The notes under the pieces were generated by a model. The model was not told the DNA's origin. It was given only the letters and a program-made list of their open reading frames with translations, and did no database searches. From a virus (Duplodnaviria; Heunggongvirae; Uroviricota; Caudoviricetes), in IMG/VR virus record IMGVR_UViG_3300025162_000035: DNA of 64,000 nt. One strand, written 5' to 3'. A program made the position numbers and the translations under genes. Shown in pieces: positions 2,950 to 57,394 of the stretch. Numbering within the stretch: the first letter of the stretch is position 1; each line of letters opens with the position of its first letter.

Positions 2950-3016
2950 TCATTAATATTATCAATTTTTTTGTTCTTTGACATATTGTAAATATAAGTA
3001 TGATCCACTATTATAT
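2950..3016 (+). promoter_or_regulatory. AT-rich putative CRISPR leader
   Basis: Non-coding AT-rich stretch in front of the first repeat; the most intact repeats lie closest to this end. Confidence 0.35.
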
Positions 3017-4420
3017 ATTGTGGATACATACATTCTGTAAGGAAATAACAACTGCCCATTGTAATTGAAAGCAAGCTGTTCAAATTGTGGATACATACAT
3101 TCTGTAAGGAAATAACAACCGAGCATTAAATGACGTTTATTTGTTGGAAATTGTGGATACATAAAATAACAACTATACCAAAGTGTTTCTTTTGGTTGTT
3201 CTTATTGTGGATACATACATTCTGTAAGGAAATAACAACATTGATTATACACCCCCCGCTGGGCGACAACATTGTGGATACATACATTCTGTAAGGAAAT
3301 AACAACAACCCCAAGATGAAGAATAGAGTTTCAGTATGTGGATACATACATTCTGTAAGGAAATAACAACAGCTTTGATAATTCACGGATCACCAACAAG
3401 ATTGTGATTCACGGATCACCAACAAGATTGTGGATATTGTGGATACATACATTCTGTAAGGAAATAACAACTTAGATCGGTTTTCACGAGAAGGTGTGTT
3501 GGATTATGATTTGGATAACTCTGAATATTGCAGCCTAATTGTGGATAAACTGCGCTGCATTCTGTAAGGAAATAACAACTCCCCTGCTTTTATGGGCACA
3601 TTTGAACCATTGTGGATACATACATTCTGCAAGGAAATAACAACAATGTGCAACGGTTTGAATTCTGTACCATAATTGTGGATACATACATTCTGTAAGG
3701 AAATAACAACATAAGGTAGTCGAGATAGTAAGAATAATAGATTACATTCTGTAAGGAAATAACAACTACTGGGTAATGAATACTCCGCCTATGCGTATTG
3801 TGGATACATACATTCTGTAAGGAAATAACAACTCTGCATTAAGTTGGGTCTGCCTTCTACGATGTGAATACATATTCTGTAAGGAAATAACAACAAGAAG
3901 TATGGTATATCTACTGTTACCATCATTGTGGAACATACATTCTGTAAGGAAATAACAACTTTACGTTCAGCATTCATATTTATTGTTTTTATTGTGGATA
4001 TTCTGTAAGGAAATAACAACATGCGATATCGGCAGTTACACTGGTTCGTTACCAATATTTGAATACATTCTGTAAGGAAATAATAATCAGGTTGCAAAGT
4101 TATTTTTAGTAGCATTGGACACATTCTGTAAGGAAATAACAATTATTGACAAACAAATCCACGTGCACCAGATAACATTCTGTAAGGAAATAACAACAGC
4201 CTATACGATATGGAGTTGGACAACACATACATTCTGTAAGGAAATAACAACTGCTTGTGCCAGTGGAATTCACCTCTATGATTGTGGATACATTCTGTAA
4301 GGAAATAACAACGAAAGATATGTTCCGATATCCACCAGTTTCAATATTCTGTAAGGAAATAACAACCTGTTCGCATAACTTCACAACAATTGTGGGTATA
4401 CATAACATTCTGTAAGGAAA
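3017..4420 (+). CRISPR. CRISPR array, about 22 repeat units; 36-nt consensus ATTGTGGATACATACATTCTGTAAGGAAATAACAAC; spacers mostly 29-31 nt
   Basis: Near-perfect 36-nt repeats at 3017, 3084, 3204, 3271, 3336, 3436, 3609, 3675 and 3797. The distal units carry variable deletions of the 5' part but always keep the 3' 21 nt ATTCTGTAAGGAAATAACAAC. All spacers are unique and GC-richer than the genome. Confidence 0.7.
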
Positions 4421-4452
4421 TTTTTTTATCCGAATATTGTTTATATATTTGT
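4420..4452 (+). promoter_or_regulatory. promoter-like element (T-tract plus extended -10 'TTGTTTATATATTTG') for gene 4472
   Basis: Matches the motif that recurs upstream of at least 12 other genes; lies 20 nt before the ATG. Confidence 0.45.
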
Positions 4453-4471
4453 AACCTAAATCAAATATAAT

Positions 4472-6736: not shown

Positions 6737-6863
6737 GCACCCAGAGCAGCACCCAGTACATTTAGATTTACCCTTGAACGTCTTTCTAATCTTGAAAAAG
6801 GTTATGAAAGACGTTCCTGTTATTATGAGGAATACAATAATATATTGGAAGATCATTTGTATA

Positions 6864-6900
6864 CATTTTTTTATTTGAATATTATTTATATATTTGCATG
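6864..6900 (+). promoter_or_regulatory. promoter-like element (T-tract plus 'TTTATATATTTGCATG')
   Basis: Same bipartite motif; 15 nt upstream of the ATG at 6915. Confidence 0.45.
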
Positions 6901-6914
6901 ATAAATCAATAAAT

Positions 6915-9994: not shown

Positions 9995-10280
9995 TTTTAG
10001 AACTGCTGTTTTCAAACGTGATGGTGGTAAATGTGTATTTTGCAATAAAGATGCGGAAGATTCACATCATATCACAGATAGAAACTCCCCAGAAATTTCT
10101 AATGGTGGATATGTTTTAGAAAATGGAATATCTCTTTGCGCTGAGCATCATTTGATAGCTGAAAAATTTCATATAAGTAATGGCACCAGTTGGGATGAAG
10201 GATTTCACCCAGATGATCTTTATAAGAAGATTGGATCATCAAAAGAATTAGCAATTCAGAAGAGTTCAGAATTATTATAA
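9966..10280 (+). CDS. small HNH endonuclease (104 aa)
   Basis: CVFCNK...SHHITDRN...NG...LCAEHH matches the HNH His-Me finger pattern. Confidence 0.55.
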   Translation: MKGKKEIRFNFRTAVFKRDGGKCVFCNKDAEDSHHITDRNSPEISNGGYVLENGISLCAEHHLIAEKFHISNGTSWDEGFHPDDLYKKIGSSKELAIQKSSELL

Positions 10281-10793
10281 ATCGAATCTTTTAGTTATTT
10301 TCCATTTATCATATTCGTTTTTAATATTAGATAATGGAAATTTATGCATAGCATATGCTGTTTCATATGTGAAGTGCTGGTCTTTAATTACAATTTTATC
10401 GGCAAACTTCTTATCAGCTAAAAAATCAAAAAGATTATCTACTTCTTCGGATTTGAAACTTGTTTCAGGTAAGAAAAATGTATAACCTCTAAGTCTATCA
10501 AAATTTTTATTTTTTCTAACTGAATATTTCCAAAATAAGTGGTCTACATATTCGAACGAGTTTATATTAAATATAGATTGATCAGCCCAATAAATTTCTA
10601 ATGTTTCCTCGTTTTTATTATTAATTGTAACGTAGTTTCTATATATTCTAATTTTACAACCTAACAGCGCACAAAGTAATTCTATAAATTTGTAAAGATC
10701 AAGTCTATCAAATTCTTCAAAATCTGCTTGATCTAAAAGGTCGCCCCTGAGAGTTTCTTTTGCTTCAGTTACAAATGAATTGTATTTTTTCAT
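10275..10793 (-). CDS. paralog-array member (172 aa), C-terminus ...KITKRFDL
   Basis: Shares the C-terminal K-x-F-D-L motif with the array members. Confidence 0.5.
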   Translation of the reverse strand: MKKYNSFVTEAKETLRGDLLDQADFEEFDRLDLYKFIELLCALLGCKIRIYRNYVTINNKNEETLEIYWADQSIFNINSFEYVDHLFWKYSVRKNKNFDRLRGYTFFLPETSFKSEEVDNLFDFLADKKFADKIVIKDQHFTYETAYAMHKFPLSNIKNEYDKWKITKRFDL

Positions 10794-10799
10794 ATATTT

Positions 10800-11177
10800 T
10801 TATAAATCAAATTGTTTCTGCTTGAAGAATTGCTCAGCATTTCCTAACCACTTGGGAAAATGTTTTAGCCTGACTGGGTTTCGGCTAAATTCTTTTATAA
10901 ATTTTTGTTTGAATTTTTCAACAAAATCATTATGTAGATAGACAACATCATTTTGATCCATTAAAATTGTCCATGTATTATCATTCCAGCTTTGATTAGC
11001 ACTTTGTGGAGTACTTTCAATAATAATACGGTATAGCCCATCAAATTGAACCTTCATGTCTATTTTAAGCCATTCCATTTCTTCCATGAGCTTTTTGTTA
11101 TAATAGTAAACATTATACTTTTCATCAGAAGAGTCACGCCTTCTATTTTCATTTAAGAATGTGTTATATGTAAGCAT
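10800..11177 (-). CDS. paralog-array member (125 aa), C-terminus ...KQKQFDL
   Basis: C-terminal FDL motif; its stop is followed by the start of 10275..10793. Confidence 0.5.
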   Translation of the reverse strand: MLTYNTFLNENRRRDSSDEKYNVYYYNKKLMEEMEWLKIDMKVQFDGLYRIIIESTPQSANQSWNDNTWTILMDQNDVVYLHNDFVEKFKQKFIKEFSRNPVRLKHFPKWLGNAEQFFKQKQFDL

Positions 11178-11226
11178 AAAATATTATTTAAGTTTTTTAT
11201 ATATATTAAAAAAAGTTGGAATAAAA

Positions 11227-11880
11227 ATGATCATAAAAACCAAAAAAGAATTAGAAGAAATTTTCAAAGCATTATATGATCAAGGGTTTGGTTATTTTCG
11301 TGATTATGACGCTCACAGCGCAAAAATTGATAAAATAATTAATAGTGCCAATACAAGGAATTTATCTGAGTATAAATATAATAATTTAAAGGATAGATTA
11401 ACAAAGATGAATGACTATGAAGAAATCAAAAAAGAAGCTGAAAAACATTTTTCAGCATATTCTCCAGAGGACAAAATAAAAGAATTAATGAATAAATTTT
11501 ATCTTATCCCAAATGCGGCTCAAAAAACACCCAGTGACTCAAGACCATCAGATTTGGATATTATTGGATGGCAAAAATTTAAGATGAAATATAATATTGA
11601 TGACTCTGGATATGGTGATTATACACACTTTGGTTATTATAATTTGGATAAAGGTCTTCGAATAAGATGGAGTAATGACTATGAATTTCCTACATTATGT
11701 GAACTTGTAAATGGTGGCCCTCCAGATTTTGAAATAAAAAAGGTGAGTGATGGTGTAGAGCTTAAGGGGAATCTTGGGAATTTTAAAGAAAGATACTTTA
11801 ATTCATTAAAAAGTGATAATGCGAATGAAATTCGAATTATAGATTATAACAATAAACGGTATATATTCAATAAAGAATAA
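11227..11880 (+). CDS. hypothetical protein (218 aa from ATG 11227; paralog of 14052..14864)
   Basis: Shares ...QGFG...DDSGYGDY... and an identical upstream palindrome TTTTTAATATATATTAAAAAA with 14052. Confidence 0.5.
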   Translation: MIIKTKKELEEIFKALYDQGFGYFRDYDAHSAKIDKIINSANTRNLSEYKYNNLKDRLTKMNDYEEIKKEAEKHFSAYSPEDKIKELMNKFYLIPNAAQKTPSDSRPSDLDIIGWQKFKMKYNIDDSGYGDYTHFGYYNLDKGLRIRWSNDYEFPTLCELVNGGPPDFEIKKVSDGVELKGNLGNFKERYFNSLKSDNANEIRIIDYNNKRYIFNKE

Positions 11881-11900
11881 AAAAAGGCGGCATGATTTTT

Positions 11901-12404
11901 TTATAAATCAAATCTACTTCCAGCTTTATTGCTAAAAAAGTCTTTGAAAGGCTCTAAGCTGGTTGGAAGTTTGTCTTTTTTTATCCAATACCCCATTTTA
12001 TCATTTCCTTTTTTATCTTGTATTTCTGTGCATTTTTCTACAACACCTTTCTCATATAAATAATCGAATAATTTAACAGGTAATTGTTGTTCAGCGAAAA
12101 CATGAAATAGTATATATTCAAGGTTGGTTGGGGAAAATAATATACTGATGTTTTGCCATTTTCTTTTTTCACCATCATATCCTTTAAACATAGTATCAAA
12201 TTTTACCATTTGATCATTTGAAAATGATAATGGTGGGTTTGTCTCCCACTCATATATTTCATACATTGACATATCCATTGCTAACTTCAAAAATTCAAAA
12301 AGAACAGCAACATTAAATTCATAGGATTCTATTTTATTTATTTCTACCGAATCTTTGCTTGGAATAAGCCATTTATCATTTTCAAAGGTTTTTAAGTATT
12401 TCAT
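11901..12404 (-). CDS. paralog-array member (167 aa), N-terminus MKYLKTFE, C-terminus SRFDL
   Basis: Conserved termini; 4-nt ATGA overlap with the upstream gene. Confidence 0.55.
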   Translation of the reverse strand: MKYLKTFENDKWLIPSKDSVEINKIESYEFNVAVLFEFLKLAMDMSMYEIYEWETNPPLSFSNDQMVKFDTMFKGYDGEKRKWQNISILFSPTNLEYILFHVFAEQQLPVKLFDYLYEKGVVEKCTEIQDKKGNDKMGYWIKKDKLPTSLEPFKDFFSNKAGSRFDL

Positions 12405-12811
12405 AAATCAAATTTTTGAATATTGGCTTTCTTTTTTAGCGCATCCTGAAATAGTTTGCCGTTAGGACCTTGGGTAGTAAATTCATTTTTATTTTTATCA
12501 ATCAATTCTATTAATCCAATATCCATTACATCGGAAGATTTATCTTCAACCAAATTGACACCGCTTTTAGGGAACCAAATAAAATATGCTTTAGATGTGG
12601 TATTTGAAAATGCTGTAAATTTAGCCCTCATCATCATTCCAATAATAGAATTATATCCTTGTTCATCTGGATCAATTTTATTCATTTTTTCAATTTCAAG
12701 TATTTTCTTGTATAATCCACCTTTAACTTCTTTGAAGCCTTCTTTTCCAATAAATACAAAAAGATCATGTGTTTCAATATCTTTATCTTCAAATGTTTTT
12801 AGATATATCAT
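12401..12811 (-). CDS. paralog-array member (136 aa), N-terminus MIYLKTFE, C-terminus QKFDL
   Basis: Conserved termini; overlapping junction CTATGA. Confidence 0.55.
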   Translation of the reverse strand: MIYLKTFEDKDIETHDLFVFIGKEGFKEVKGGLYKKILEIEKMNKIDPDEQGYNSIIGMMMRAKFTAFSNTTSKAYFIWFPKSGVNLVEDKSSDVMDIGLIELIDKNKNEFTTQGPNGKLFQDALKKKANIQKFDL

Positions 12812-13248
12812 AGATCAAATTGTTTTGATTTCATACTTACTGATAATTGATTTTTAATTTCATCTCGTCTTTTAATATAATTATCTACTAAATCTTGTAA
12901 TTTAATATCTAATTCACATCCAGCGGCTTTATACAAATCTTTTAGATATAGTTTAAAGAAATGTCTAATATCTTCATCTGTTGGTATATTATCTTCATCT
13001 AAAACAAAGAATTTAAGGTTTTGTGATCTTGCTTGAACTGGCTTTACATAATCTTTATAAAATGTATAACCTTCAAAATGATATAATCCAACCATAGCTG
13101 TATTTTCTGGCTGAAGTCGCATTAAATCAAATTTTGAAGTGTTTGGATAATCAAATTTAAAAATGTCGCCAACTTGAAGCCTGACCCCATTTTGATATTT
13201 AAGTTGTTCCTCATTATTAAAGGCTTCATACAGTTTCAAATACACCAT
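12808..13248 (-). CDS. paralog-array member (146 aa), N-terminus MVYLKLYE, C-terminus KQFDL
   Basis: Clear paralog of 13248..13655 (GDIFKFDYP vs GDIFRFTYP). Confidence 0.55.
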   Translation of the reverse strand: MVYLKLYEAFNNEEQLKYQNGVRLQVGDIFKFDYPNTSKFDLMRLQPENTAMVGLYHFEGYTFYKDYVKPVQARSQNLKFFVLDEDNIPTDEDIRHFFKLYLKDLYKAAGCELDIKLQDLVDNYIKRRDEIKNQLSVSMKSKQFDL

Positions 13249-13655
13249 TACATATCAAATTGTTTTGTAGATTTAAATATATTATATTCTTTTTCCATTT
13301 CATCACGTCTTTGATGAGCTTCTTTAATGGATATTTTTTTACCAGCTCCCCACAACTTTGAATTTGCACAACTTAGATATAAATCGAGTTCTTCTTTAGA
13401 CGGTATGCTTTCATCATCAACAGTAAAAAAATTTAATTGCACAGAATCTTTCTCTACGACACCTTTAGATTTTTTATTGAAAACATATCCTTTAAATATA
13501 TATCCATCGTCTTCATCTGGGTAATTAATAAGTCTTTCAATAGCAATTATATTGTTGTCTGGATACGTAAATCTGAAGATATCCCCAGTTTTTATTTTAA
13601 TCGTTTCTTCCCATTCCTCAAAAACACTTTCATTAAAATATCTGATATACACCAT
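13248..13655 (-). CDS. paralog-array member (135 aa), N-terminus MVYIRYFNE, C-terminus KQFDM
   Basis: Junction sequence CAATTTGATATGTAATGGTGTAT is identical to the next junction, indicating tandem duplication. Confidence 0.55.
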   Translation of the reverse strand: MVYIRYFNESVFEEWEETIKIKTGDIFRFTYPDNNIIAIERLINYPDEDDGYIFKGYVFNKKSKGVVEKDSVQLNFFTVDDESIPSKEELDLYLSCANSKLWGAGKKISIKEAHQRRDEMEKEYNIFKSTKQFDM

Positions 13656-13999
13656 TACATATCAAATTGTTTTCCTTTTAAAATTGGATCGACATTCCCG
13701 CAAATTTTAGGAACATATTTCATGTCGTCCAAATATACAGGTGCGTTTTTCTTAAATTCTATAGCAAATTTTTTCCAGAATGGCTCAATAGCATCTACTG
13801 GAAGTTTTAGCATCTCAATATTACCTTCCACTTCTAAAAGAACTTGACGCATATCACCATCTTCCATAACAATATTAATGAATTGGTGGTCTACGGCAAT
13901 TTTTTTCCAATTTTTATTCATCATATCTTTCCAATTCCAATAAACCAATTGGTTCTTTGTGGTTGATTCTTTAATAATAAATGATGTGTAGCTAAGCAT
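13655..13999 (-). CDS. paralog-array member (114 aa), C-terminus KGKQFDM
   Basis: C-terminal motif; first gene of the minus-strand array. Confidence 0.5.
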   Translation of the reverse strand: MLSYTSFIIKESTTKNQLVYWNWKDMMNKNWKKIAVDHQFINIVMEDGDMRQVLLEVEGNIEMLKLPVDAIEPFWKKFAIEFKKNAPVYLDDMKYVPKICGNVDPILKGKQFDM

Positions 14000-14051
14000 A
14001 TGTGATTTTACTTTTACTTTTTAATATATATTAAAAAATTCATCACATTTT

Positions 14052-14864
14052 ATGGAAATCGGCATAATAAAAAACAAAAGTGAATTAGAAAAAGTTTTAT
14101 CATTTTTCCAAGAACAGGGGTTTAGCACTGGTAGTGCAACATCATGGCATGATTCAAAGATTCGATATATAATAGAATCTGAAAATGTTAACAAATTAAA
14201 CATCAAATTTGATCATCAAAACGATTTTATAAAAAGTGATGATGCTTGGCTCACTACAAATGATAAAGAACAAGTATTACGAAAATTATATTGGGTTAAT
14301 GATTATGATGAAGTTCAAAAAATAGCGAAGCACTTTTTTTCTAAATTCACTGTTAATGATAAAATTGATGAATTGCTTAAGCATTTTAGTTTAGAAGAAG
14401 ATGATACTTGTACGATCCCACCAGTTAACAGTGAGCCGAGTTACAGTGATGTTGATGGTTGGTATAAATTTAGAATAAAATATGGAATAGATGACAGTGG
14501 AGATTTTTATTTCAGAAACAATCATAGAAATGAGGTGAAGGTTTTTAATTTTGATAAGAAGTCAATAAAAATATCTGGAATTAAGAAATATGAAGGGCTT
14601 CATGAATTCAGAAAGCTTTATGAAATAATATATGGAAAGCCGCCATTGGATTTTGATGTTGATAATAAAGGAGTTTGGCAAGACTTGGGGGAGATTCAAT
14701 TAAAATCATACAAAAATGGCACAACAGAGCTCAGTGGTAACCTCAAAAAATTGAAAGATTATTTTTACAATAAAGTAAAGACTCAGCAAAGGCACATTTT
14801 TAATGTTGTGTTTCATGATGGAAAGAAAGAATTTTTAGAAATGGATCAAAAATATAAAGACTGA
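14052..14864 (+). CDS. hypothetical protein (270 aa; paralog of 11227..11880)
   Basis: Shared motifs and shared upstream palindrome. Confidence 0.5.
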   Translation: MEIGIIKNKSELEKVLSFFQEQGFSTGSATSWHDSKIRYIIESENVNKLNIKFDHQNDFIKSDDAWLTTNDKEQVLRKLYWVNDYDEVQKIAKHFFSKFTVNDKIDELLKHFSLEEDDTCTIPPVNSEPSYSDVDGWYKFRIKYGIDDSGDFYFRNNHRNEVKVFNFDKKSIKISGIKKYEGLHEFRKLYEIIYGKPPLDFDVDNKGVWQDLGEIQLKSYKNGTTELSGNLKKLKDYFYNKVKTQQRHIFNVVFHDGKKEFLEMDQKYKD

Positions 14865-15298
14865 TGAAATATTTAAAAACTTTTGAAAAGAAAACAAACT
14901 ATAGTATTACATTATGTTTTAATGATATTTATGAAATATTGTCTAAATATTACGGTGATGCTTTTTTAAGAACTCCAGACACTGGATCGGATGATTGTGA
15001 ATATAGATTATCCAGAAAAATTATGATGGAGTATTTTGCAAATAAAAAAATAGAATTCTTTTGTAAAAGAATATATTTCTGTTCTCGATCAAAGGATTAT
15101 AATAATGTTGTGAATGGCTATGTTAAATATATAATGACAACCAATCCAGCTATAAGTCCCAGTTATGGTGAGGTGTCTGATTGGGTTACTTTGTTAATAG
15201 GAAGAACGGAATATAAAGCTGGGTTAAATGATATTATTACAGTGTATAGTAATCAAACTTTTGACTCATTTATTAGTTCTCGTAGATTTGATTTATAA
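14864..15298 (+). CDS. dispersed paralog-family member (144 aa), N-terminus MKYLKTFEKK, C-terminus SRRFDL
   Basis: Both conserved termini present. Confidence 0.55.
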   Translation: MKYLKTFEKKTNYSITLCFNDIYEILSKYYGDAFLRTPDTGSDDCEYRLSRKIMMEYFANKKIEFFCKRIYFCSRSKDYNNVVNGYVKYIMTTNPAISPSYGEVSDWVTLLIGRTEYKAGLNDIITVYSNQTFDSFISSRRFDL

Positions 15299-15300
15299 TT

Positions 15301-15348
15301 ATGAAATATATTAAACAATATGAAAACACTAAAAAAATATGGGGTTAA
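15301..15348 (+). pseudogene. vestigial paralog start 'MKYIKQYENTKKIWG*'
   Basis: ATGAAATATATTAAA directly after FDL*TAATT mimics the conserved gene junction, then terminates after 15 codons. Confidence 0.3.
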
Positions 15349-15743
15349 TTAACTGTTATTAAAAATTTAATAAAACTTATTAAAATCTAACATTATCTAC
15401 AACCAAAATTTATTTTACTAAAAATGAGTTTTTTACTTTAATATATAGTATTTATAGTTGATGTTCTTTGATATAGTGGTTGTTGACCAAAAACTTGGTC
15501 AGCGTAAAATCAAAAAAAGTAAAAAACATTGATTTGAAACAAAATCATACTTAATTTAGATTTTATAGGGAGCCGTACTCCCGAATTAACGCTTTTGGAG
15601 ATTATGTAAGACATTTAAACTTAATTTATTAAGTGAATATGCAATGGTCGATGAATTAAGAAGAATTAAATTTATCATCTTGTAGATTTTGGTAAGTTTT
15701 TTCATACGGTAATAAACCGCATATAAAAGAATATGAGGACACC

Positions 15744-16172
15744 ATGGAAGAGCTTTTTAAGTTTTTCCAGACCGCTATTGATATTCCATATGATGTTACT
15801 GTTAAAGAAGATACGTATCCGCATAAGATAGTTGGCAATTTTTATAAGGATAGAAAAAGTTTTTTGTGTGTTCAAATAGTATCTCAAGTAATACTACATT
15901 ATTATGGTGGACCAGCTTCCAATGTTAAATATTTTTTGAAGATAAGTTTTGAAGTTAAACCATCTCTATGGGAAAGGGAGAAATGTTGGGAAATAATTGA
16001 TTATTTGATGGATGAATCAATATTGCGTCCAGATACAGTCTTAACTACAAATAATAAAGGTGATGTTAGTGTAGTCTATGAAGTTCCAATTAATAATTTA
16101 GGATTTCTCAGGAAAAGGCTAACCTTAAATGGGCTGAAGCAAAATAAGACCCTAAAACGATTCGATTTATAA
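15744..16172 (+). CDS. paralog-family member (142 aa), C-terminus TLKRFDL
   Basis: C-terminal motif; preceded by a 445-nt non-coding gap. Confidence 0.5.
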   Translation: MEELFKFFQTAIDIPYDVTVKEDTYPHKIVGNFYKDRKSFLCVQIVSQVILHYYGGPASNVKYFLKISFEVKPSLWEREKCWEIIDYLMDESILRPDTVLTTNNKGDVSVVYEVPINNLGFLRKRLTLNGLKQNKTLKRFDL

Positions 16173-16409
16173 TTAGAATGCAATCGTACTTGGAAACGTG
16201 GTGGATATGTCATCTGCGTTGATAATAAATTATGTCCAGAACTTACTTTAAATAAGTCTTATACTGTCATAAGAATAGATCATGAAGATAAATACACATC
16301 AGTTATTAATGACTTGGGCAAAGAGTTTGCATATTATCACTATAGATTTAAAAATGATATTGCAAGACAGCGTAAAGAGAAATTAAATAAAATTTATGGT
16401 TTTAATTGA
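16173..16409 (+). pseudogene. member of the small Lys-rich-C-terminus family lacking an in-frame start (…YVICVDNK…RQRKEKLNKIYGFN*)
   Basis: Open frame directly after the FDL stop with family motifs V-I-C-V-D-N-K and RKEKLNKI, but no ATG/GTG. An ATG at 16186 lies in the +1 frame, so this is a frameshift or an indel. Confidence 0.3.
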
Positions 16410-22545: not shown

Positions 22546-22622
22546 GGGCCCTTAGCTCAGATGGTTAGAGCAACTGACTCATAATCAGTAGGTCGCTGGT
22601 TCAAATCCAGCAGGGCCCACCA
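22546..22622 (+). tRNA. tRNA-Met (anticodon CAT; could be initiator, elongator or Ile2), with encoded CCA
   Basis: Cloverleaf: acceptor GGGCCCT/AGGGCCC, D-arm GCTCAGATGGTTAGAGC, anticodon loop CTCATAA, T-arm GCTGGTTCAAATCCAGC, then ACCA. Confidence 0.85.
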
Positions 22623-24522: not shown

Positions 24523-24597
24523 GGCCCTATAGTATAATGGCAAAAAGTACGGAAAATTTTGGATTTTCAGGATAAGGTTCGATTCCTTATAGGGCTG
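24523..24597 (+). tRNA. tRNA, anticodon tentatively TTG (Gln)
   Basis: Acceptor GGCCCTA/TAGGGCT, D-arm GTAT-AATGGCAAAAA-GTAC, anticodon stem GAAAA/TTTTC with loop TTTTGGA, T-arm TAAGGTTCGATTCCTTA. Confidence 0.55.
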
Positions 24598-24615
24598 CAA
24601 AAAAATATAACATAC

Positions 24616-24686
24616 TGATCCATAGCATAATGCAGTGTGTCACCCTTTGAAGGTGTTCGGTATAGGTTCGAGTCCTATTGGATCAA
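24616..24686 (+). tRNA. tRNA with a reduced D-arm, anticodon tentatively TTG (Gln)
   Basis: Acceptor TGATCCA/TGGATCA, anticodon stem CACC/GGTG with loop CTTTGAA, T-arm ATAGGTTCGAGTCCTAT; D-stem only 3 bp and no GG in the D-loop. Confidence 0.4.
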
Positions 24687-24691
24687 CACAA

Positions 24692-24763
24692 TGCTCCATC
24701 GACCAACGGCTAAGTCGTGAGTCTCTGAAACTCAAGATGATGGTTCAAATCCATCTGGGGCAA
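24692..24763 (+). tRNA. tRNA, anticodon tentatively CTG (Gln)
   Basis: Acceptor TGCTCCA/TGGGGCA (one G-U pair), D-loop CAACGGCTAA, anticodon stem TGAGT/ACTCA with loop CTCTGAA, T-arm GATGGTTCAAATCCATC. Confidence 0.5.
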
Positions 24764-24830
24764 CAATGTCCATATTGGTATTTTTTTGACTTTTTTATTT
24801 TAATATATAGAATAAAAAAGAATTATACCT

Positions 24831-27601: not shown

Positions 27602-28480
27602 TTACAGTTTAGAGTGAATAGATTTAACAAAATCAATATGGTCCTTTGATTGCGGAACCCCAGCAAAATTTAACCTGAGGAACTGGGCAATTGTATCTTC
27701 ATCCGTAGTTGTTTGGGATAAAGTTGCATAAGAAAATTGCTGATGATTTGTAAACCGCTGCTGGGCACGTGTAGAAAGATCGGAAAAATAATTTCCACGA
27801 CTATCAGGATATTCACCAAGAACAAACCCACGTATGGCGTTCAGCCGCTGTTTTCCGTCAACTATATCAAAAAATGCAATATTGGTTGTATTACCTTTTT
27901 TGATTTCAGATTCAACGAATTCCCAACTACGCTCACGAATGAGAATTCTACCACATTCTATACCCATATAGACACTTTCGAGGAGAAGTTGATTATCTTC
28001 CAATGTCCACACGAAAGGTCGCTGGTAATGGAGCTTATTGCCATCCTTATCATAAACAAAAGGATTCCAATTAATCTCAGGTACATTCACACCAAGAATA
28101 ACAGTCGGATCAGTATCTTTTGTTCCAAGAACGTTTAAATTGAAAATAATAGATTCAAGTGTAAATGCTGTGAATTGAACGTTTCCTTTTTGGGAGACAA
28201 ATGGATTTTCTCCGATTTCCATTTCTGTGAGTCGTGTGTTTATATTTTCGATGTAAATGACAACTGGCACACCGAAAGCATATTCCAGTTCTCTAACTTC
28301 AACCTTCTGGTCATTTATAATCTTTGTGATTTCACAGGAATATATTCTACCAGTTGGGTTAGCTCTGATCCATTTGTCGGCAACATAAACTATGTCACCA
28401 ACGGTTGGCTTGGATGCTTCAAAAGCTTGAAGAAGTTTTTCTTTCTTATCGGATACAAGTTTGGTTTTTATCGTCATACT
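27602..28480 (-). CDS. DUF262 (ParB/GmrS-like NTPase-nuclease N-domain) protein; start at MTIKTKL
   Basis: Motifs YQRPFVW and DGKQRLNAI match the DUF262 QR...W / DGQQR signature. Track ORF 27602..28624 overlaps the upstream gene, so the start was trimmed to 28480. Confidence 0.6.
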   Translation of the reverse strand, partial: SMTIKTKLVSDKKEKLLQAFEASKPTVGDIVYVADKWIRANPTGRIYSCEITKIINDQKVEVRELEYAFGVPVVIYIENINTRLTEMEIGENPFVSQKGNVQFTAFTLESIIFNLNVLGTKDTDPTVILGVNVPEINWNPFVYDKDGNKLHYQRPFVWTLEDNQLLLESVYMGIECGRILIRERSWEFVESEIKKGNTTNIAFFDIVDGKQRLNAIRGFVLGEYPDSRGNYFSDLSTRAQQRFTNHQQFSYATLSQTTTDEDTIAQFLRLNFAGVPQSKDHIDFVKSIHSKL

Positions 28481-28481
28481 T

Positions 28482-29666
28482 TTAAAGTTTAAAATATTTA
28501 ATTGCCCACAGTGGTTTTTCAATATCTGGAATGTTACAAGCAGTAACACGGTGTTTTGCATATCCAAAATCCAAAAATCCTTTACCATGCTGACCATACT
28601 GATACAATGCTTGGATTTGTTCATCGGTTATCGGGATATTTGAATCATATCCACTGTAAATAACCCATTCATTATGAATTTTCACCCATCCCTCTTTATC
28701 AAGAATGTCGCAAGCATTACCCCTGATATGGGTTTCACCAAAATCTTTATCTTCGATGATACCAGCGTCCAGAAGTGCATCGGCAATCTGAATATGGAGA
28801 TTGTGCGCAATATCTCCATTGAGTGCATAATAAACACCTTTTGGTGAAATCCAGCCAGCAGATTTTGGCTCAGTAACTGAGCTTGGTTGGATTCCATGTT
28901 TCAGTTCACGATCAATATTGCGCTGAGATTCGATGTAACTGTCAACAGCACTAAATTTCTTAGAATCAGGATCACCTATTGCTTCAGCATATTTTACTTT
29001 ACGCTGGTCATCTTCCAGTTTAATTGTGACGAGATCAGCATTGAGAAGATACTCAAGTGAAAATTGCTCAATATACCCTCTTCTCATGGCACTTCCAACC
29101 TGATTGATATCTTGTGGAACTTCAAAATTGACAAAATTGACAATTGGAAGATCAGCAATTGATTTACCAATGTGATTACCAACGAACATAAGTTGCCTTA
29201 CAATAGCATCAAATTTTTCTTTCCGATGTATGTAGACCTTACGATCTTCTTCGAGTGATATAACATACCCATCCCAAATTTCGAACCCGCAGAAGCGATA
29301 TAATGCACCATTCTGTTCATCGGCATTCCCAAGAATCATAATTCTCCGCTGAAGTGATTGCAAATCACCAAGAGCATTGAAATACTGTCGGGCTAAACGG
29401 CTCCAAACTGATTCGACTGTCAATGGGATTCCAACAACATCAGAAACGGTGTTATCTTCTTCAACTCCGCAACCTTCGTCACTATCTCCAGTAACTTTCA
29501 GTTTACCTAAAACAATATCCCATGCCATATCATCTTTCATTCCAATCAAAGATTTTGTCAGGAATTCTACGGCATTTTTTGGAGTATCTTCAACAAAAAG
29601 ATTTCTGGCATGTTCTGTCATGAATTCGCCAGTTATTGTGAAATGGAGGGATTTTCTTTCGATCAT
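28482..29666 (-). CDS. hypothetical protein (about 394 aa), co-operonic partner of the DUF262 gene; GC-richer
   Basis: Intact ORF; the track start at 29702 uses a TTG codon lying in the promoter motif, so the likely start is MIERK at 29666; no known motif recognised. Confidence 0.5.
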   Translation of the reverse strand: MIERKSLHFTITGEFMTEHARNLFVEDTPKNAVEFLTKSLIGMKDDMAWDIVLGKLKVTGDSDEGCGVEEDNTVSDVVGIPLTVESVWSRLARQYFNALGDLQSLQRRIMILGNADEQNGALYRFCGFEIWDGYVISLEEDRKVYIHRKEKFDAIVRQLMFVGNHIGKSIADLPIVNFVNFEVPQDINQVGSAMRRGYIEQFSLEYLLNADLVTIKLEDDQRKVKYAEAIGDPDSKKFSAVDSYIESQRNIDRELKHGIQPSSVTEPKSAGWISPKGVYYALNGDIAHNLHIQIADALLDAGIIEDKDFGETHIRGNACDILDKEGWVKIHNEWVIYSGYDSNIPITDEQIQALYQYGQHGKGFLDFGYAKHRVTACNIPDIEKPLWAIKYFKL

Positions 29667-45434: not shown

Positions 45435-45986
45435 ATGAAAAAATATATTAAATCTTTTGATAATCTTTATGAAGATATCAATATTGGAATTGATAATGAT
45501 AAAGATACTATCAATTTTTTAAATAAATTGCTATCAAATCATTTCATTTTGTTTCTCAAATTGTGGAATTTTCATTGGAATGTTTTTGGCTCTGGATTTA
45601 TGGCTAATCATAAATTTCTTAATGAATTATATGATAAATTCTTTGAAGATATTGATAGCATCTCAGAAAGAATAAGAGCCTTAGGTGGAAGACCAATAGG
45701 TACATTGAAAGGATATTTGGATAAGACAGATTTAAAAGAATATGACGATGATAAAGATATTCCAAAAGTTGAAAAAATGTATGAAATTATATTGGAAGAC
45801 TATGAATCAATTATAAAAGATATACGAAAATTCTTAGGTGATAAAGTTGATAATGGCACCAGCAATTTCCTTGAAGATATGATCATGAAGAAAGAAAAAG
45901 ATGCTTGGATGGTAAGATCGAATATTGAAAAAAATAAAGAAAAATCAGATTCAGATTCTGAATCATCGGATAACTCCGATAATTAA
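45435..45986 (+). CDS. dps: Dps / ferritin-like protein with an acidic Ser/Asp-rich C-terminal tail
   Basis: LWNFHWNVFGSGFMANHKFLNELYDKFFEDIDSISERIRALGGRP matches the Dps ferroxidase-region pattern; tail SDSDSESSDNSDN. Confidence 0.75.
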   Translation: MKKYIKSFDNLYEDINIGIDNDKDTINFLNKLLSNHFILFLKLWNFHWNVFGSGFMANHKFLNELYDKFFEDIDSISERIRALGGRPIGTLKGYLDKTDLKEYDDDKDIPKVEKMYEIILEDYESIIKDIRKFLGDKVDNGTSNFLEDMIMKKEKDAWMVRSNIEKNKEKSDSDSESSDNSDN

Positions 45987-46000
45987 AAAAAATAAAAATT

Positions 46001-46444
46001 ATGAAATATTTAAAGAAATTCGAACTAAAAGATGTAGATGATTTGGCTATGTATAATATCCCAGACGAACAACTACAAATGGAAGAACCTGGAATACCAA
46101 GAAGAACTCCCACTGATGATTATATGGATGAGTATATGATAACAAGACCCGCAATCAGACATTTCATTTCGAGGATTCGTGACCCTAAAGAATTTACTCC
46201 AGATGAATTAAAAACATTCACTGATGAAATTCTCAATATTGAAGATTTTGAGGTTTCGACTGCATTATTGTCATATTTAAATAAACAACATAAGGCTAAA
46301 ATTAATTATAGCAAAATTTGGGATGATGTTATAAAAAGGTGGCATGAGGATAAATATAAATTGGTTGATCCAGACACACATAAATCTGTTATTAAAGTAA
46401 CAGATAGAATACATGGAACAAACTATGCTGATAAAGAATACTAA
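46001..46444 (+). CDS. hypothetical protein (147 aa) with a paralog-family-type N-terminus MKYLKKFELKD
   Basis: The N-terminal motif is shared; the C-terminus (…ADKEY) is not. Confidence 0.45.
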   Translation: MKYLKKFELKDVDDLAMYNIPDEQLQMEEPGIPRRTPTDDYMDEYMITRPAIRHFISRIRDPKEFTPDELKTFTDEILNIEDFEVSTALLSYLNKQHKAKINYSKIWDDVIKRWHEDKYKLVDPDTHKSVIKVTDRIHGTNYADKEY

Positions 46445-55628: not shown

Positions 55629-55955
55629 TCATGTGCTTAAATATTGAATGATATGCTGTTTGTATATTTGATAAAAAAGATCATTTGAAATTAATATTGG
55701 GTTATAATATTCATCTTTTTTTGATGTTTTCTCAAAGATACGACTAATTCCAGAATGGCGAAAAAAGATTCTGTTGGAAATTTTAAATTGTTTACCATTT
55801 TTTTTGAATATAACATTCTCAAGTTTCTTACTCCATAAAAGCTCACCATGGAACCCATACACGTTGGTTTCTTCCTGATCCAAACTAAAGGTGATCCCCA
55901 GAGCCAGCAATTCAGCAATTACGTTTTGAACAGATTTATCTTCGAGTGCTGTCAT
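55629..55955 (-). CDS. hypothetical protein (108 aa)
   Basis: ORF track. Confidence 0.35.
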   Translation of the reverse strand: MTALEDKSVQNVIAELLALGITFSLDQEETNVYGFHGELLWSKKLENVIFKKNGKQFKISNRIFFRHSGISRIFEKTSKKDEYYNPILISNDLFYQIYKQHIIQYLST

Positions 55956-56623
55956 TTTTTCATAAAGTTATATACGCATCTGTCGGTACCAATTGCAATT
56001 TCAATAACTTTGTACCCTTCAAGGTCTTTCCGTTTACTCATTGAACAAATTTCCATGGAATTCTTGGCACATATAATATCCATCGTTTCTTCCGAATAGT
56101 CTGGAAGACGATCACTTTGACCAAGTTCACATCGTCCGATCATATTATTCATCATAGCCAAAACATCGGAATATAGTTTGATTGAATAATCGTTCATGGT
56201 AGTGGTGGCAAAAATGATCTGGTATTCCAATTGATAGAATTCCTTCAATCGCATGAAATGGGTTGGCTGGTCCTGTTCCTTACGGAATGACTTCCCATGT
56301 TGCCAAACAACGATAGGTGGGCGATATTTTATATTGTTGTGTCCTGATAGCATTTCTTTGGCATATAAATAAGACCCCATAGTGGTTTCTGGTCTTAATG
56401 CAACATCTTCAAATGCCCAGATATCATCTTCAGTATAGTTTGGGTTGATAAATTCTCGTGGGGTTAGTATGGGGGCTTCAACCTGAATAAATTGAAATGC
56501 AGCGTTCTGTTGCTTTAATGATTGAATCAATTTGAATGTGAAGTGTTCTTCCAGCATTTTTCGAATGCGGATTTCTTCTTCAGTCCAAAATATTAAACCA
56601 TTTTTATTATATAGGCTTTCCAT
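55952..56623 (-). CDS. mini histidyl-tRNA-synthetase-like class II catalytic core (223 aa; no insertion or anticodon-binding domain)
   Basis: FEDVALRPETTMGSY (cf. HisRS FEDRNGDSLTLRPEGTAG), motif 2 SFRKEQDQPTHFMRLKEFYQLE (cf. FRHERPQKGRYRQFHQLG), motif-3-like IEIAIGTDRCV (cf. GFAMGLERLV). Confidence 0.55.
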   Translation of the reverse strand: MESLYNKNGLIFWTEEEIRIRKMLEEHFTFKLIQSLKQQNAAFQFIQVEAPILTPREFINPNYTEDDIWAFEDVALRPETTMGSYLYAKEMLSGHNNIKYRPPIVVWQHGKSFRKEQDQPTHFMRLKEFYQLEYQIIFATTTMNDYSIKLYSDVLAMMNNMIGRCELGQSDRLPDYSEETMDIICAKNSMEICSMSKRKDLEGYKVIEIAIGTDRCVYNFMKK

Positions 56624-56870
56624 TGCTAATTTTTTTAAGTTTTAATTTTCTTAATTCTTTGGTAGTTATAAAGTATTCGTCAAACATTGGTTTACCATAT
56701 AGCCAAGGTTTACCTATATTAAATGTTACAAGATATCCACCAGCACCAGATATTAAAACTATGGATAATTCACATTTACTATAAACTTGATATTTAACCC
56801 CAGCTTGAAATAATATTATTTTTTCTGGTGGATATGTATGCTTACAATAAACTTGCTCCACATTTTCCAT
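56607..56870 (-). CDS. small protein of the Lys-rich-C-terminus family (MENVEQVYCKHTYP...FITTKELRKLKLKKISNGKPI*)
   Basis: Tandem paralog; the NG codons contain the ATG of the HisRS-like gene. Confidence 0.5.
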   Translation of the reverse strand: MENVEQVYCKHTYPPEKIILFQAGVKYQVYSKCELSIVLISGAGGYLVTFNIGKPWLYGKPMFDEYFITTKELRKLKLKKISNGKPI

Positions 56871-57123
56871 TTTTCAATTTATCAAGTTTTAATTTTCTTA
56901 ATTCTTTGGTAGTTATAAAGTATTCGTCAAACATTGGGTGCTCATATAGCCAGCGTTTACCTATGTTAAATCTAACACCCCTACCACCATCTCCAATTAT
57001 TCCAACATATTTTTCATTTCTTTCAACCAATTTATATTTAGTACCTTCACTAAATATAACTTTTTCTTCTGGATACCAATGTGGAACTTGCGGATATGTA
57101 GATTTACAGTAGACTTCTTCCAT
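56842..57123 (-). CDS. small protein of the Lys-rich-C-terminus family (MEEVYCKSTYP...FITTKELRKLKLDKLKNGKCGASLL*)
   Basis: Tandem paralog; 29-nt overlap with the next copy. Confidence 0.5.
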   Translation of the reverse strand: MEEVYCKSTYPQVPHWYPEEKVIFSEGTKYKLVERNEKYVGIIGDGGRGVRFNIGKRWLYEHPMFDEYFITTKELRKLKLDKLKNGKCGASLL

Positions 57124-57394
57124 TTTTCAATTTATCAAGTTTTAACTTTCTTAATTCTGATTTGCTTGCAAAATAATGCTCAAAAATAGGCAAATTAGTT
57201 GGTCGTGGATTTCCAATTCGTATATAAAATCTTATAAGATGCTGACTTATATTTTTATTCTTACTAATTATTACTATGGCTGTCTTATTTTCATGAAAAA
57301 CATGGTAGCTTTTTCCAGAGATAAAAAGTATTTCAACATCTTCTTTACAATCTGCTGGTTCCCAATACGTTTCTTTACAATATACTTCAGCCAT
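57104..57394 (-). CDS. small protein of the Lys-rich-C-terminus family (MAEVYCKETYW...SKSELRKLKLDKLKNGRSLL*)
   Basis: Tandem paralog; 20-nt overlap with the next copy. Confidence 0.5.
   Translation of the reverse strand: MAEVYCKETYWEPADCKEDVEILFISGKSYHVFHENKTAIVIISKNKNISQHLIRFYIRIGNPRPTNLPIFEHYFASKSELRKLKLDKLKNGRSLL

Follow-up and report, generated by a model that had tools for sequence, protein, structure and literature searches.

Why do small phage genes that stand side by side encode proteins with the same two ends and little in common between them? The question is raised by a tandem array in a 64,000-nucleotide stretch of DNA (the window) from a tailed phage of the Caudoviricetes, IMG/VR record IMGVR_UViG_3300025162_000035. 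An earlier note on this DNA described the array as fast-diverging paralogs and proposed a diversifying arsenal of packaged or injected anti-defence proteins. We find that the ends are short tags which are selected as protein and sit on unrelated cores, and that the junctions encoding them act as recombination arms for cassette loss and replacement between strains. The tagged proteins may be modular cargo or effectors which are addressed to the prohead by a capsid-targeting, scaffold-mimicking N-terminal propeptide and probably injected into the host. Judged from sequence, we give this reading slightly less than an even chance.

Strain comparison was based on contigs L142–L144, which are about 90–96% identical to the window. 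Near-identical contigs are present in several metagenomes; the strain contigs L001–L005 are too similar to the window to allow a ratio of nonsynonymous to synonymous substitution rates (dN/dS) to be calculated.

Two kinds of leader and a common C-terminal end

Ten open reading frames (ORFs) of the window, named here by their first coordinate, end in [KRQ]FD[LM], as the earlier note had seen: 10275, 10800, 11901, 12401, 12808, 13248 and 13655 on the minus strand, 14864 and 15744 on the plus strand, and 29869 again on the minus strand. The frequency of internal FD[LM] in the 127 genes counted predicts 0.054 such ends (Poisson p about 5e-20). The local end, (K/R/Q)-F-D-(L/M), is a spelling variant of a widespread K-[FY]-N-[LI] end.

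The N-terminal leader exists in two types. Type 1, MK(Y/H)(L/I)Kx(F/Y)E, is the one that was recognised previously; M.Y[LI][KR].[FY] indeed starts 11901, 12401, 12808, 13248, 14864, 46001 and the 15301 fragment. Three members then regarded as motif-less, 10275, 10800 and 13655, carry a second motif, M-x-x-Y-x-x-F-(I/L/V)-x-E (type 2), in their starts MKKYNSFVTEA, MLTYNTFLNEN and MLSYTSFIIKES, respectively.

Two details of the first description need correction. The supposed run of seven consecutive minus-strand genes is split into five and two by a plus-strand gene (11227–11880), and 12808 and 13248 are not the only members that are alike, since 10800 and 13655 are also detectably related (E 1e-7). 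Core homology among the window members is detectable for these two pairs only. The array and its dispersed members are laid out as follows.

10275..10793, minus strand: member, 172 residues; MKKYNSFVTEA (type 2, similar to the T4 capsid-targeting sequence) to KRFDL; dN/dS 0.20 against L142
10800..11177, minus strand: member, 125 residues; MLTYNTFLNEN (type 2) to KQFDL; first gene of a two-gene operon; paralog of 13655
11178..11226: divergent intergenic region; palindromic TTTTTAATATATATAAAAA promoter-like box serving 10800 (minus) and 11227 (plus)
11227..11880, plus strand: gene of a family termed X, 217 residues, no known domain; paralog of 14052–14864 (E 3e-23); interrupts the array
11901..12404, minus strand: member, 167 residues; MKYLKTFEN to SRFDL (type 1)
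12401..12811, minus strand: member, 136 residues; MIYLKTFED to QKFDL; strains carry a 156-residue form
12808..13248, minus strand: member, 146 residues; MVYLKLYEA to KQFDL; SH3-like subfamily
13248..13655, minus strand: member, 135 residues; MVYIRYFNE to KQFDM; SH3-like; polymorphic cassette slot
13655..13999, minus strand: member, 114 residues; type 2 with the Glu shifted by one, to KQFDM; first gene of a five-gene operon
14000..14051: divergent intergenic region; TTTTTAATATATATTAAAAA box serving 13655 (minus) and 14052 (plus)
14052..14864, plus strand: X-family gene, 270 residues; its stop overlaps the start of 14864 (ATGA)
14864..15298, plus strand: member, 144 residues; MKYLKTFEK to RRFDL
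15301..15345, plus strand: 5′ part of a split member gene, MKYIKQYENTKKIWG; gene intact (169 residues) in strain L142
15346..15707: 362-bp insertion splitting that gene; contains a TATATA box; no Rfam family; no second copy in the window
15708..16172, plus strand: 3′ part of the split gene; ORF from the ATG at 15744, 142 residues; ends KRFDL; in frame with 15301–15345
16176..16393, plus strand: frameshifted remnant of an SH3-like member, MQSYLETWW... / ...GGYVICVDNK...KIYGFN*; absent from L142
29869..30348, minus strand: dispersed member, 159 residues; C-terminal tag only (KKFDL)
45435..45986, plus strand: Dps-like ferritin protein (DNA-binding); N-terminal extension MKKYIKSFDN
46001..46444, plus strand: protein with the N-terminal tag only, 147 residues; MKYLKKFEL

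Selection on the ends and exchange of cassettes

Conserved ends of adjacent genes could in principle be maintained as nucleic acid, that is, as a recombination junction, as an ATGA element for translational coupling or as an AT-rich unstructured initiation region, with peptide conservation as a by-product. Nearly all motif residues are encoded by A/T-only codons, in AT-rich relatives a TATATA box lies 3–7 nucleotides before the ATG of the first array gene, and a stretch of 26 identical nucleotides, aaacaatttgatatgtaatggtgtat, is common to the junctions 13655|13248 and 13248|12808, in agreement with the earlier observation of two identical junctions. The junction at 12404 reads TTTGATTTATGAAATA. 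Codon usage speaks against such an explanation. The share of minor synonymous codons in the related loci is 10.9% at N-terminal and 17.1% at C-terminal motif positions, compared with 13.9% in the interiors of the same genes, so that synonymous variation at the motifs equals that elsewhere. Within the window, the motif codons alternate between TAT and TAC, TTA, CTA and TTG, TTT and TTC, or AGA and CGA. Amino acid replacements at the motifs are conservative (F/Y, L/I, N/D, K/R/Q). Furthermore, both motifs occur apart from each other and from any neighbouring family gene, at the first and last genes of arrays as well as in dispersed genes, and the spacing at the junctions varies (ATGA overlap, TAATG or a 6-nucleotide gap). 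Because of the synonymous variation, the conservative replacements and the independent occurrence of both motifs, conservation is not confined to the DNA; such a confinement is what the earlier note had named as counting against its proposal. We therefore regard a primarily nucleic-acid origin of the ends as very improbable.

Selection on the peptide does not prevent the junction DNA from being used in exchange. Slot 13248 is occupied in L142 and L143 by another SH3-like paralog, which has 130 residues, is 35% identical to the member in the window and bears the same ends. In L144 the gene is absent and the junction is a clean shared sequence, caatttgatatgtaATGgtgtatttgaaa. Since this slot was replaced or deleted at an identical junction, the tag-coding junctions serve as recombination arms; deletion and replacement exactly at the junctions is also what an element acting as nucleic acid would produce. 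Members are thus gained, lost and replaced between strains L142–L144, in line with the birth and death of copies suggested before. In addition, strains differ by an in-frame 60-nucleotide indel in 12401, located just after the N-terminal tag at an 11-nucleotide repeat.

The two pseudo-starts which had been read as signs of this turnover have different histories. The fragment at 15301 and ORF 15744–16172 are the two halves of one gene, split by the 362-bp insertion. Strain L142 holds this gene intact as a protein of 169 residues, MKYIKQYENTKKIWGNKPHIKEYEDTMEELFKFF...KQFDL, and has no insertion; its counterpart of the 3′ part (15708–16172) is 64% identical in amino acid sequence, with a dN/dS of 0.38. 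The pseudo-start after 16172 belongs to the frameshifted SH3-like member. The insertion itself may represent a small mobile element or an intron that escapes recognition. A group I intron is not supported, as Rfam returned no family for the insertion and its surroundings and the U/G splice-site rule cannot hold at both ends.

In the strain comparison, dN/dS of the array genes ranges from 0.03 to 0.70 and mostly lies between 0.1 and 0.4; the two aminoacyl-tRNA synthetase (aaRS) genes of the window give 0.04–0.07.

The wider family and its cores

The tags are widespread. A degenerate DNA pattern for MKYLKxF[ED] matched at least 120 IMG/VR viral contigs; among the matches listed, most have 22–30% guanine plus cytosine (GC) and measure 20–500 kb, and many contain several matches. 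Tandem arrays flanked by MK[YH][LI]Kx[FY]E and K[FY]N[LI] are present in more than 30 AT-rich viral contigs, where arrays joined by ATGA overlaps reach 9–11 genes. In the loci of the matches listed, at least 147 ORFs end in [FY][ND][LIMV], with the consensus [ATS]-[NK]-K-[FY]-N-[LI], and at least 87 carry both ends. As the arrays are flanked by genes for gp32-like, GIY-YIG/NUMOD3, PPK2 and metallophosphatase proteins, the contigs which bear them are phages. Uncultured AT-rich phages with a T4-type head module thus harbour a large family of this kind.

Searches with whole proteins reach less far. The 50,697 phage records searched with the array gave no match at the DNA level, and tblastn with all members concatenated matched them in the Dps-like part only. 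A profile of all 11 window members retrieved strain variants only from 5.8 billion proteins, and a profile of 113 mixed family members found only 7 matches because the shared signal is too short. The SH3-like subfamily is more tractable: 12808 and 13248 align end to end with the pattern MKYIKxFE...VGDYVI...NNIGxI...YENIP...SKNKEELE...ANKYNL, which has 92 matches in a clustered database and 1021 representative clusters at E <= 1e-3 in an exhaustive search. Pfam and PHROGs profiles gave nothing below E 0.01 for ten window members, and a full-text literature search for the motif strings returned nothing relevant. With no curated family matched either, the tagged family is apparently undescribed so far.

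What lies between the tags differs from gene to gene. Among the matches listed, 113 proteins with the C-terminal tag include 15 with ankyrin repeats and two with leucine-rich repeats (LRR), besides single cases of ExoX-like_C, DnaJ zinc-finger, DMP19 and Anti-TRAP domains; another 111 with the N-terminal tag only include a phage lysozyme, a SET-domain protein and AAA_28/33 kinases. With its termini stripped, the core of 13655 has a homolog in contig L051 which carries the other N-terminal tag (MKYLKLFED...EKYNL) and lies beside an X-family homolog. Likewise, the stripped core of 29869 has a homolog in L112 without the C-terminal tag. The ends therefore behave as portable tags.

Could this still be an ordinary fast-evolving paralog family, in which the terminal segments are the most constrained parts of a single ancestral fold whose middle has drifted beyond recognition? 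True paralogs do exist in some subfamilies, and to this extent the first description stands. A single BLAST-connected cluster holds 77 of 126 C-tag proteins, 12808 and 13248 belong to the large SH3-like subfamily over their whole length, orthologs are under purifying selection, and the last 60 residues of 12808 are modelled by AlphaFold2 as a helical hairpin (residues 91–144, which alone reach a predicted local distance difference test (pLDDT) score of 70–82). Common descent is insufficient for the wider family, where unrelated Pfam domains are frequent among the cores, the N-terminal tag alone heads lysozyme, SET and kinase proteins, and a given core can be seen with the other N-terminal tag or, in another case, without the C-terminal one. 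Together with the mere two similar pairs in the window, these findings make a single drifting family unlikely.

Two further proteins of the window may be mentioned here. The Dps-like protein, directly upstream of the N-tagged 46001, has an N-terminal extension of 16–26 residues, MKKYIKSFDNLYEDIN, and an acidic Ser/Asp tail; whether the extension is a tag on a known domain is uncertain. The X family is linked to the arrays by position, and in L051 one of its homologs adjoins a tagged member; neither this family nor the tagged genes adjacent to head genes gave a match in Pfam or PHROGs.

The leader and the T4-type head

The capsid-targeting sequence (CTS) of phage T4 is MKTYQEFIAE (bioRxiv 10.1101/2021.01.19.427310). 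Suppressor analysis assigned residues 4 and 7, the determinants in IPIII, to targeting, and residues 8 and 10 to processing (PMC9026906), with the cut made after (L/I)-x-E. The likeness to this sequence, which the earlier note had based on MKYLKTFE, holds, and it is strongest in members which were then set apart: 10275 (MKKYNSFVTE) and 10800 (MLTYNTFLNE) keep Y4, F7, the aliphatic residue 8 (V8 and L8, respectively) and E10. The aromatic residues at positions 4 and 7 are also present in 13655 (MLSYTSFIIK), whose Glu follows one residue later. MKYLKTFE itself misfits the T4 register, having Y3 and E8.

The same leader occurs in LR756501.1, a 735-kb uncultured phage whose PhoH is 74% identical to that of the window and which we take to be the largest genome of the 'huge phages' survey. 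There, M..Y..F[LIV].E starts four genes where 0.05 are expected, and at least 13 proteins start M-x(1-3)-[YF]-x-x-[YF]-[ILV]-x-E. LR756501 homologs exist for only 14 window genes and their order is not syntenic; the window is thus an accessory-rich region of a distant relative.

A search for the prohead protease, which had been recommended, found it in relatives as part of a T4-type portal, protease/scaffold and capsid module. In LR756501, the gene for a gp20-like portal (E 2e-29) is followed by that for an 807-residue protein, gp21-like in its N-terminal part and with tandem repeats thereafter, and then by that for a gp23-like capsid protein. The protease–scaffold fusion gene lies at 73913–76336, with counterparts in L148–L227 at about 6001; its protease domain retrieved 80 further head modules at 67–100% identity. 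Three of the head-module contigs were also found by the MKYLK scan, and one 30-kb contig holds both an array (as L063) and a head module (as L178).

All scaffolds consist of 10–14 tandem 14-residue repeats, YSEY[IL]AENLDK[SN]Ix, every one of which ends in a gp21-type (I/L)-A-E site and has a core resembling the T4 CTS (YQEFIAE). A matrix built from the repeat core scores the T4 CTS at 10.7, above every N-terminus of LR756501; scores above the 99.9% null are reached by six N-termini of this phage, against an expectation of about one. The gene that separates portal from protease in L082 and L097, at the position of T4 gp67/gp68, starts MKYLKLFEQFVNEA; its L097 version has an additional domain inserted between two VNEA copies.

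A promoter-like box is a second link between arrays and head genes. Of 186 portal, protease and capsid genes, 135 (73%) are preceded within 60 nucleotides by a TATATA-type box, compared with 207 of 501 other genes of the same head loci (41%; odds ratio 3.8, p 3e-13). The window has it before only 17 of its 127 genes, and the genes that open the two array operons belong to these 17. A TTTTTAATATATAT box is located 26–31 nucleotides before the ATG in the divergent intergenic regions from which the two minus-strand operons and the two plus-strand X genes start; that of 10800 is at -26/-28.

Two observations on the box and on the head locus may be added. A T-rich stretch with a AATATATA box recurs at 11178–11226, 14000–14051, 4409–4471 and 6857–6914 of the window and at the head genes of LR756501, 20–45 nucleotides before the ATG, where it is often a palindrome shared by two divergent genes; the shorter distance in the AT-rich relatives would imply near-leaderless mRNAs. 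The capsid gene is immediately followed by a conserved gene of about 129 codons (L198 10002–10391, L221 9976–10359 and equivalents), which starts tag-like with MIKNFNLFNESKK or MKYLKYFESKK and whose predicted product resembles an NFACT-R/DUF814-type domain.

Head loading or another partner

On the reading that we favour, the locus is a cassette hot-spot in which each gene provides a small variable core between two short peptide tags, the N-terminal one in two interchangeable versions. Like the T4 CTS, the leader would attach its protein to the scaffold repeats of the prohead core, and a gp21-type protease would then cleave the leader off after the Glu. The C-terminal tag is a putative second docking peptide. 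The cargo would ride in the head and enter the host together with the DNA, and the outcome would be a rapidly exchangeable set of putative host-takeover or anti-defence proteins.

Several results weigh against this reading. Six type-1 members have Y3, F/Y7 and E8 and are out of the T4 register, and most type-1 leaders have no aliphatic residue at P3 of the Glu, only 12808 (L-Y-E-A) fitting. The C-terminal tag has no T4 counterpart, and its family was not found in LR756501, which has the head module and type-2 leaders; the C-terminal tag is thus not required for a T4-type head module. With 35 of 782 head-locus genes and 5 of 127 window genes (4–5%) bearing the N-terminal tag, the amount of cargo would be large, and it would include lysozyme, kinases and, beside the capsid gene, an NFACT-like protein. 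The head genes of the window phage itself lie outside the 64 kb. Selection on the array genes is purifying and relaxed, with no demonstrable diversifying selection. AlphaFold2 models of 12808 with 9 and with 96 sequences remain of low confidence (pLDDT 54–55). Lastly, the view of the TATATA box as a strictly late promoter could not be upheld, as it also precedes a gp39-like topoisomerase gene in LR756501, and a gp55 homolog was looked for and not detected.

Part of this evidence would suit a different partner. The tags may dock onto a hub outside the capsid, for instance a protease of the host or of the phage, a chaperone, a sliding clamp or a PDZ-like reader, and the proteins would then be intracellular host-takeover effectors or adaptors whose shared ends provide common regulation or the delivery of bound targets. 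Ankyrin, LRR and DNA-mimic-like cores are typical of binder or effector modules, and the AlphaFold2 models leave the first ten and the last few residues of 12808 unstructured. F-D-L-COOH and F-N-L-COOH are hydrophobic-x-hydrophobic ends of the kind read by C-terminal peptide binders. The frequency of the tag, its presence on enzymes unlikely as cargo and the lack of a consistent protease site in type-1 leaders point in the same direction. A hub of this kind does not account for a type-2 leader which retains all four mapped residues of the T4 CTS and resembles the scaffold repeat of relatives, for the tagged gene at the gp67/gp68 position in two head modules, or for the promoter-like box that arrays and head genes have in common; nor did any candidate partner gene co-occur with the arrays in the loci examined. 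We consider it rather unlikely, though more probable than the other alternatives. A sliding-clamp motif was also considered for Q-F-D-L, whose Q is not conserved (K, R or Q).

The favoured reading, cargo for the prohead, can be extended. A two-ended address, composed of the scaffold-mimicking leader and the C-terminal K[FY][ND][LI], might load dozens of interchangeable injected proteins with ankyrin, LRR, SH3-like and DNA-mimic-like cores in a large clade of uncultured T4-related huge phages, the tag DNA doubling as recombination arms of an integron-like cassette system that operates at the protein level. We put this forward as a possibility only, and hold more doubt than belief in it. If the tags are head-loading signals, the T4 logic of a 10-residue leader on arbitrary cargo would be ancient and would extend to the largest known phages. 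Thousands of hypothetical proteins would then be recognisable from sequence as candidate injected effectors, a direct route to mining anti-defence and host-takeover functions would be at hand, and the tags would be new handles for packaging foreign proteins. Even without packaging, peptide tags which double as recombination arms for unrelated cores would represent an unusual mode of gene-cassette evolution.

Genomic surroundings

The window is densely coded, its GC content is about 30%, and it contains four tRNA genes, a methionyl-tRNA synthetase (MetRS), an Asn/Asp/Lys-type aaRS and PhoH; further genes specify PPK2, a formyltransferase, a lysine-2,3-aminomutase-like radical SAM enzyme, an RNA ligase and a GmrSD_N protein. 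The translation toolkit is unusually rich, combining the tRNAs with MetRS, a class II aaRS, the formyltransferase and the EpmB-like radical SAM enzyme. Three tRNA-Gln genes stand in a row (two with anticodon TTG, one with CTG), accompanied by one tRNA-Met (24523–24764 and 22546–22622), and a truncated class II aaRS-like ORF at 55952–56623 is part of the same set. A giant-virus origin, which aaRS, tRNAs, ankyrins and low GC might suggest, was discarded in view of the gp32-like and GIY-YIG genes in the flanks and the T4-type head module of the relatives. The GmrSD_N (DUF262) domain protein at 27602–28624 is phage-encoded (E 1.5e-11).

Two more sets of small repeated genes are present, both on the minus strand. 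At 2962–4408, small overlapping ORFs start MYPQ, MYPH or MCPM and end ...ECMYPQ..; their copy number varies, and strain L002 is without about 680 bp of this array (3119–3796). A trio of paralogs at 56607–57394 (87, 93 and 96 residues) starts ME(E)VYCK.TYP, and comparisons within the trio reach pairwise E values as low as 1e-20.

Comparison with known systems

The closest parallel is provided by the T4 internal proteins IPI, IPII, IPIII and Alt. They, too, carry a leader of roughly ten residues on otherwise unrelated small proteins, and its Y4, F7, aliphatic residue 8 and E10 are kept in 10275, 10800 and at least four LR756501 genes. The T4-type portal, protease, scaffold and capsid module of the relatives and a gene content that is polymorphic between strains extend the likeness. 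In contrast to T4, the present system has many more genes per genome, arranged in ATGA-overlapped operons. It also has a second leader type (MKYLKxFE) out of the T4 register, a conserved C-terminal tag, and cores which include ankyrin, LRR and SH3-like domains.

In T4-type phages, promoter-early stem-loop (PeSL) cassettes bring about a shuffling of modules (PMC2839356, PMC4122927). There, short conserved flanks around non-essential ORFans provide homology for deletion, insertion and replacement between close phages; single-ORF indel and replacement at conserved flanks was likewise found at slot 13248 (L142/L143 and L144). The intergenic sigma70-like promoter and stem-loop of PeSL cassettes were not found in the array, whose junctions are coding, mostly overlap (ATGA, TAATG) and leave no intergenic space. 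Unlike PeSL flanks, those of the array consist of the final codons of one gene and the initial codons of the next, and selection acts on the peptide that they encode.

The giant phages phiKZ and SPN3US possess inner-head or ejection protein families of variable number which are cut after Glu by a gp21-related protease; these families are true paralogs, have propeptides of at least 100 residues and were proven by mass spectrometry (PMC5694885). The likeness lies in the expansion and variable number of the protein families and in processing after Glu, which is known for phiKZ and SPN3US. Pfam and PHROGs profiles revealed no sequence relationship between the window members and these head families.

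Finally, encapsulins load their cargo by means of a short C-terminal peptide which is found on diverse proteins and binds the interior of an HK97-fold shell. K[FY][ND][LI] has no sequence similarity to these cargo-loading peptides; it is like them in being a short C-terminal peptide on diverse proteins.

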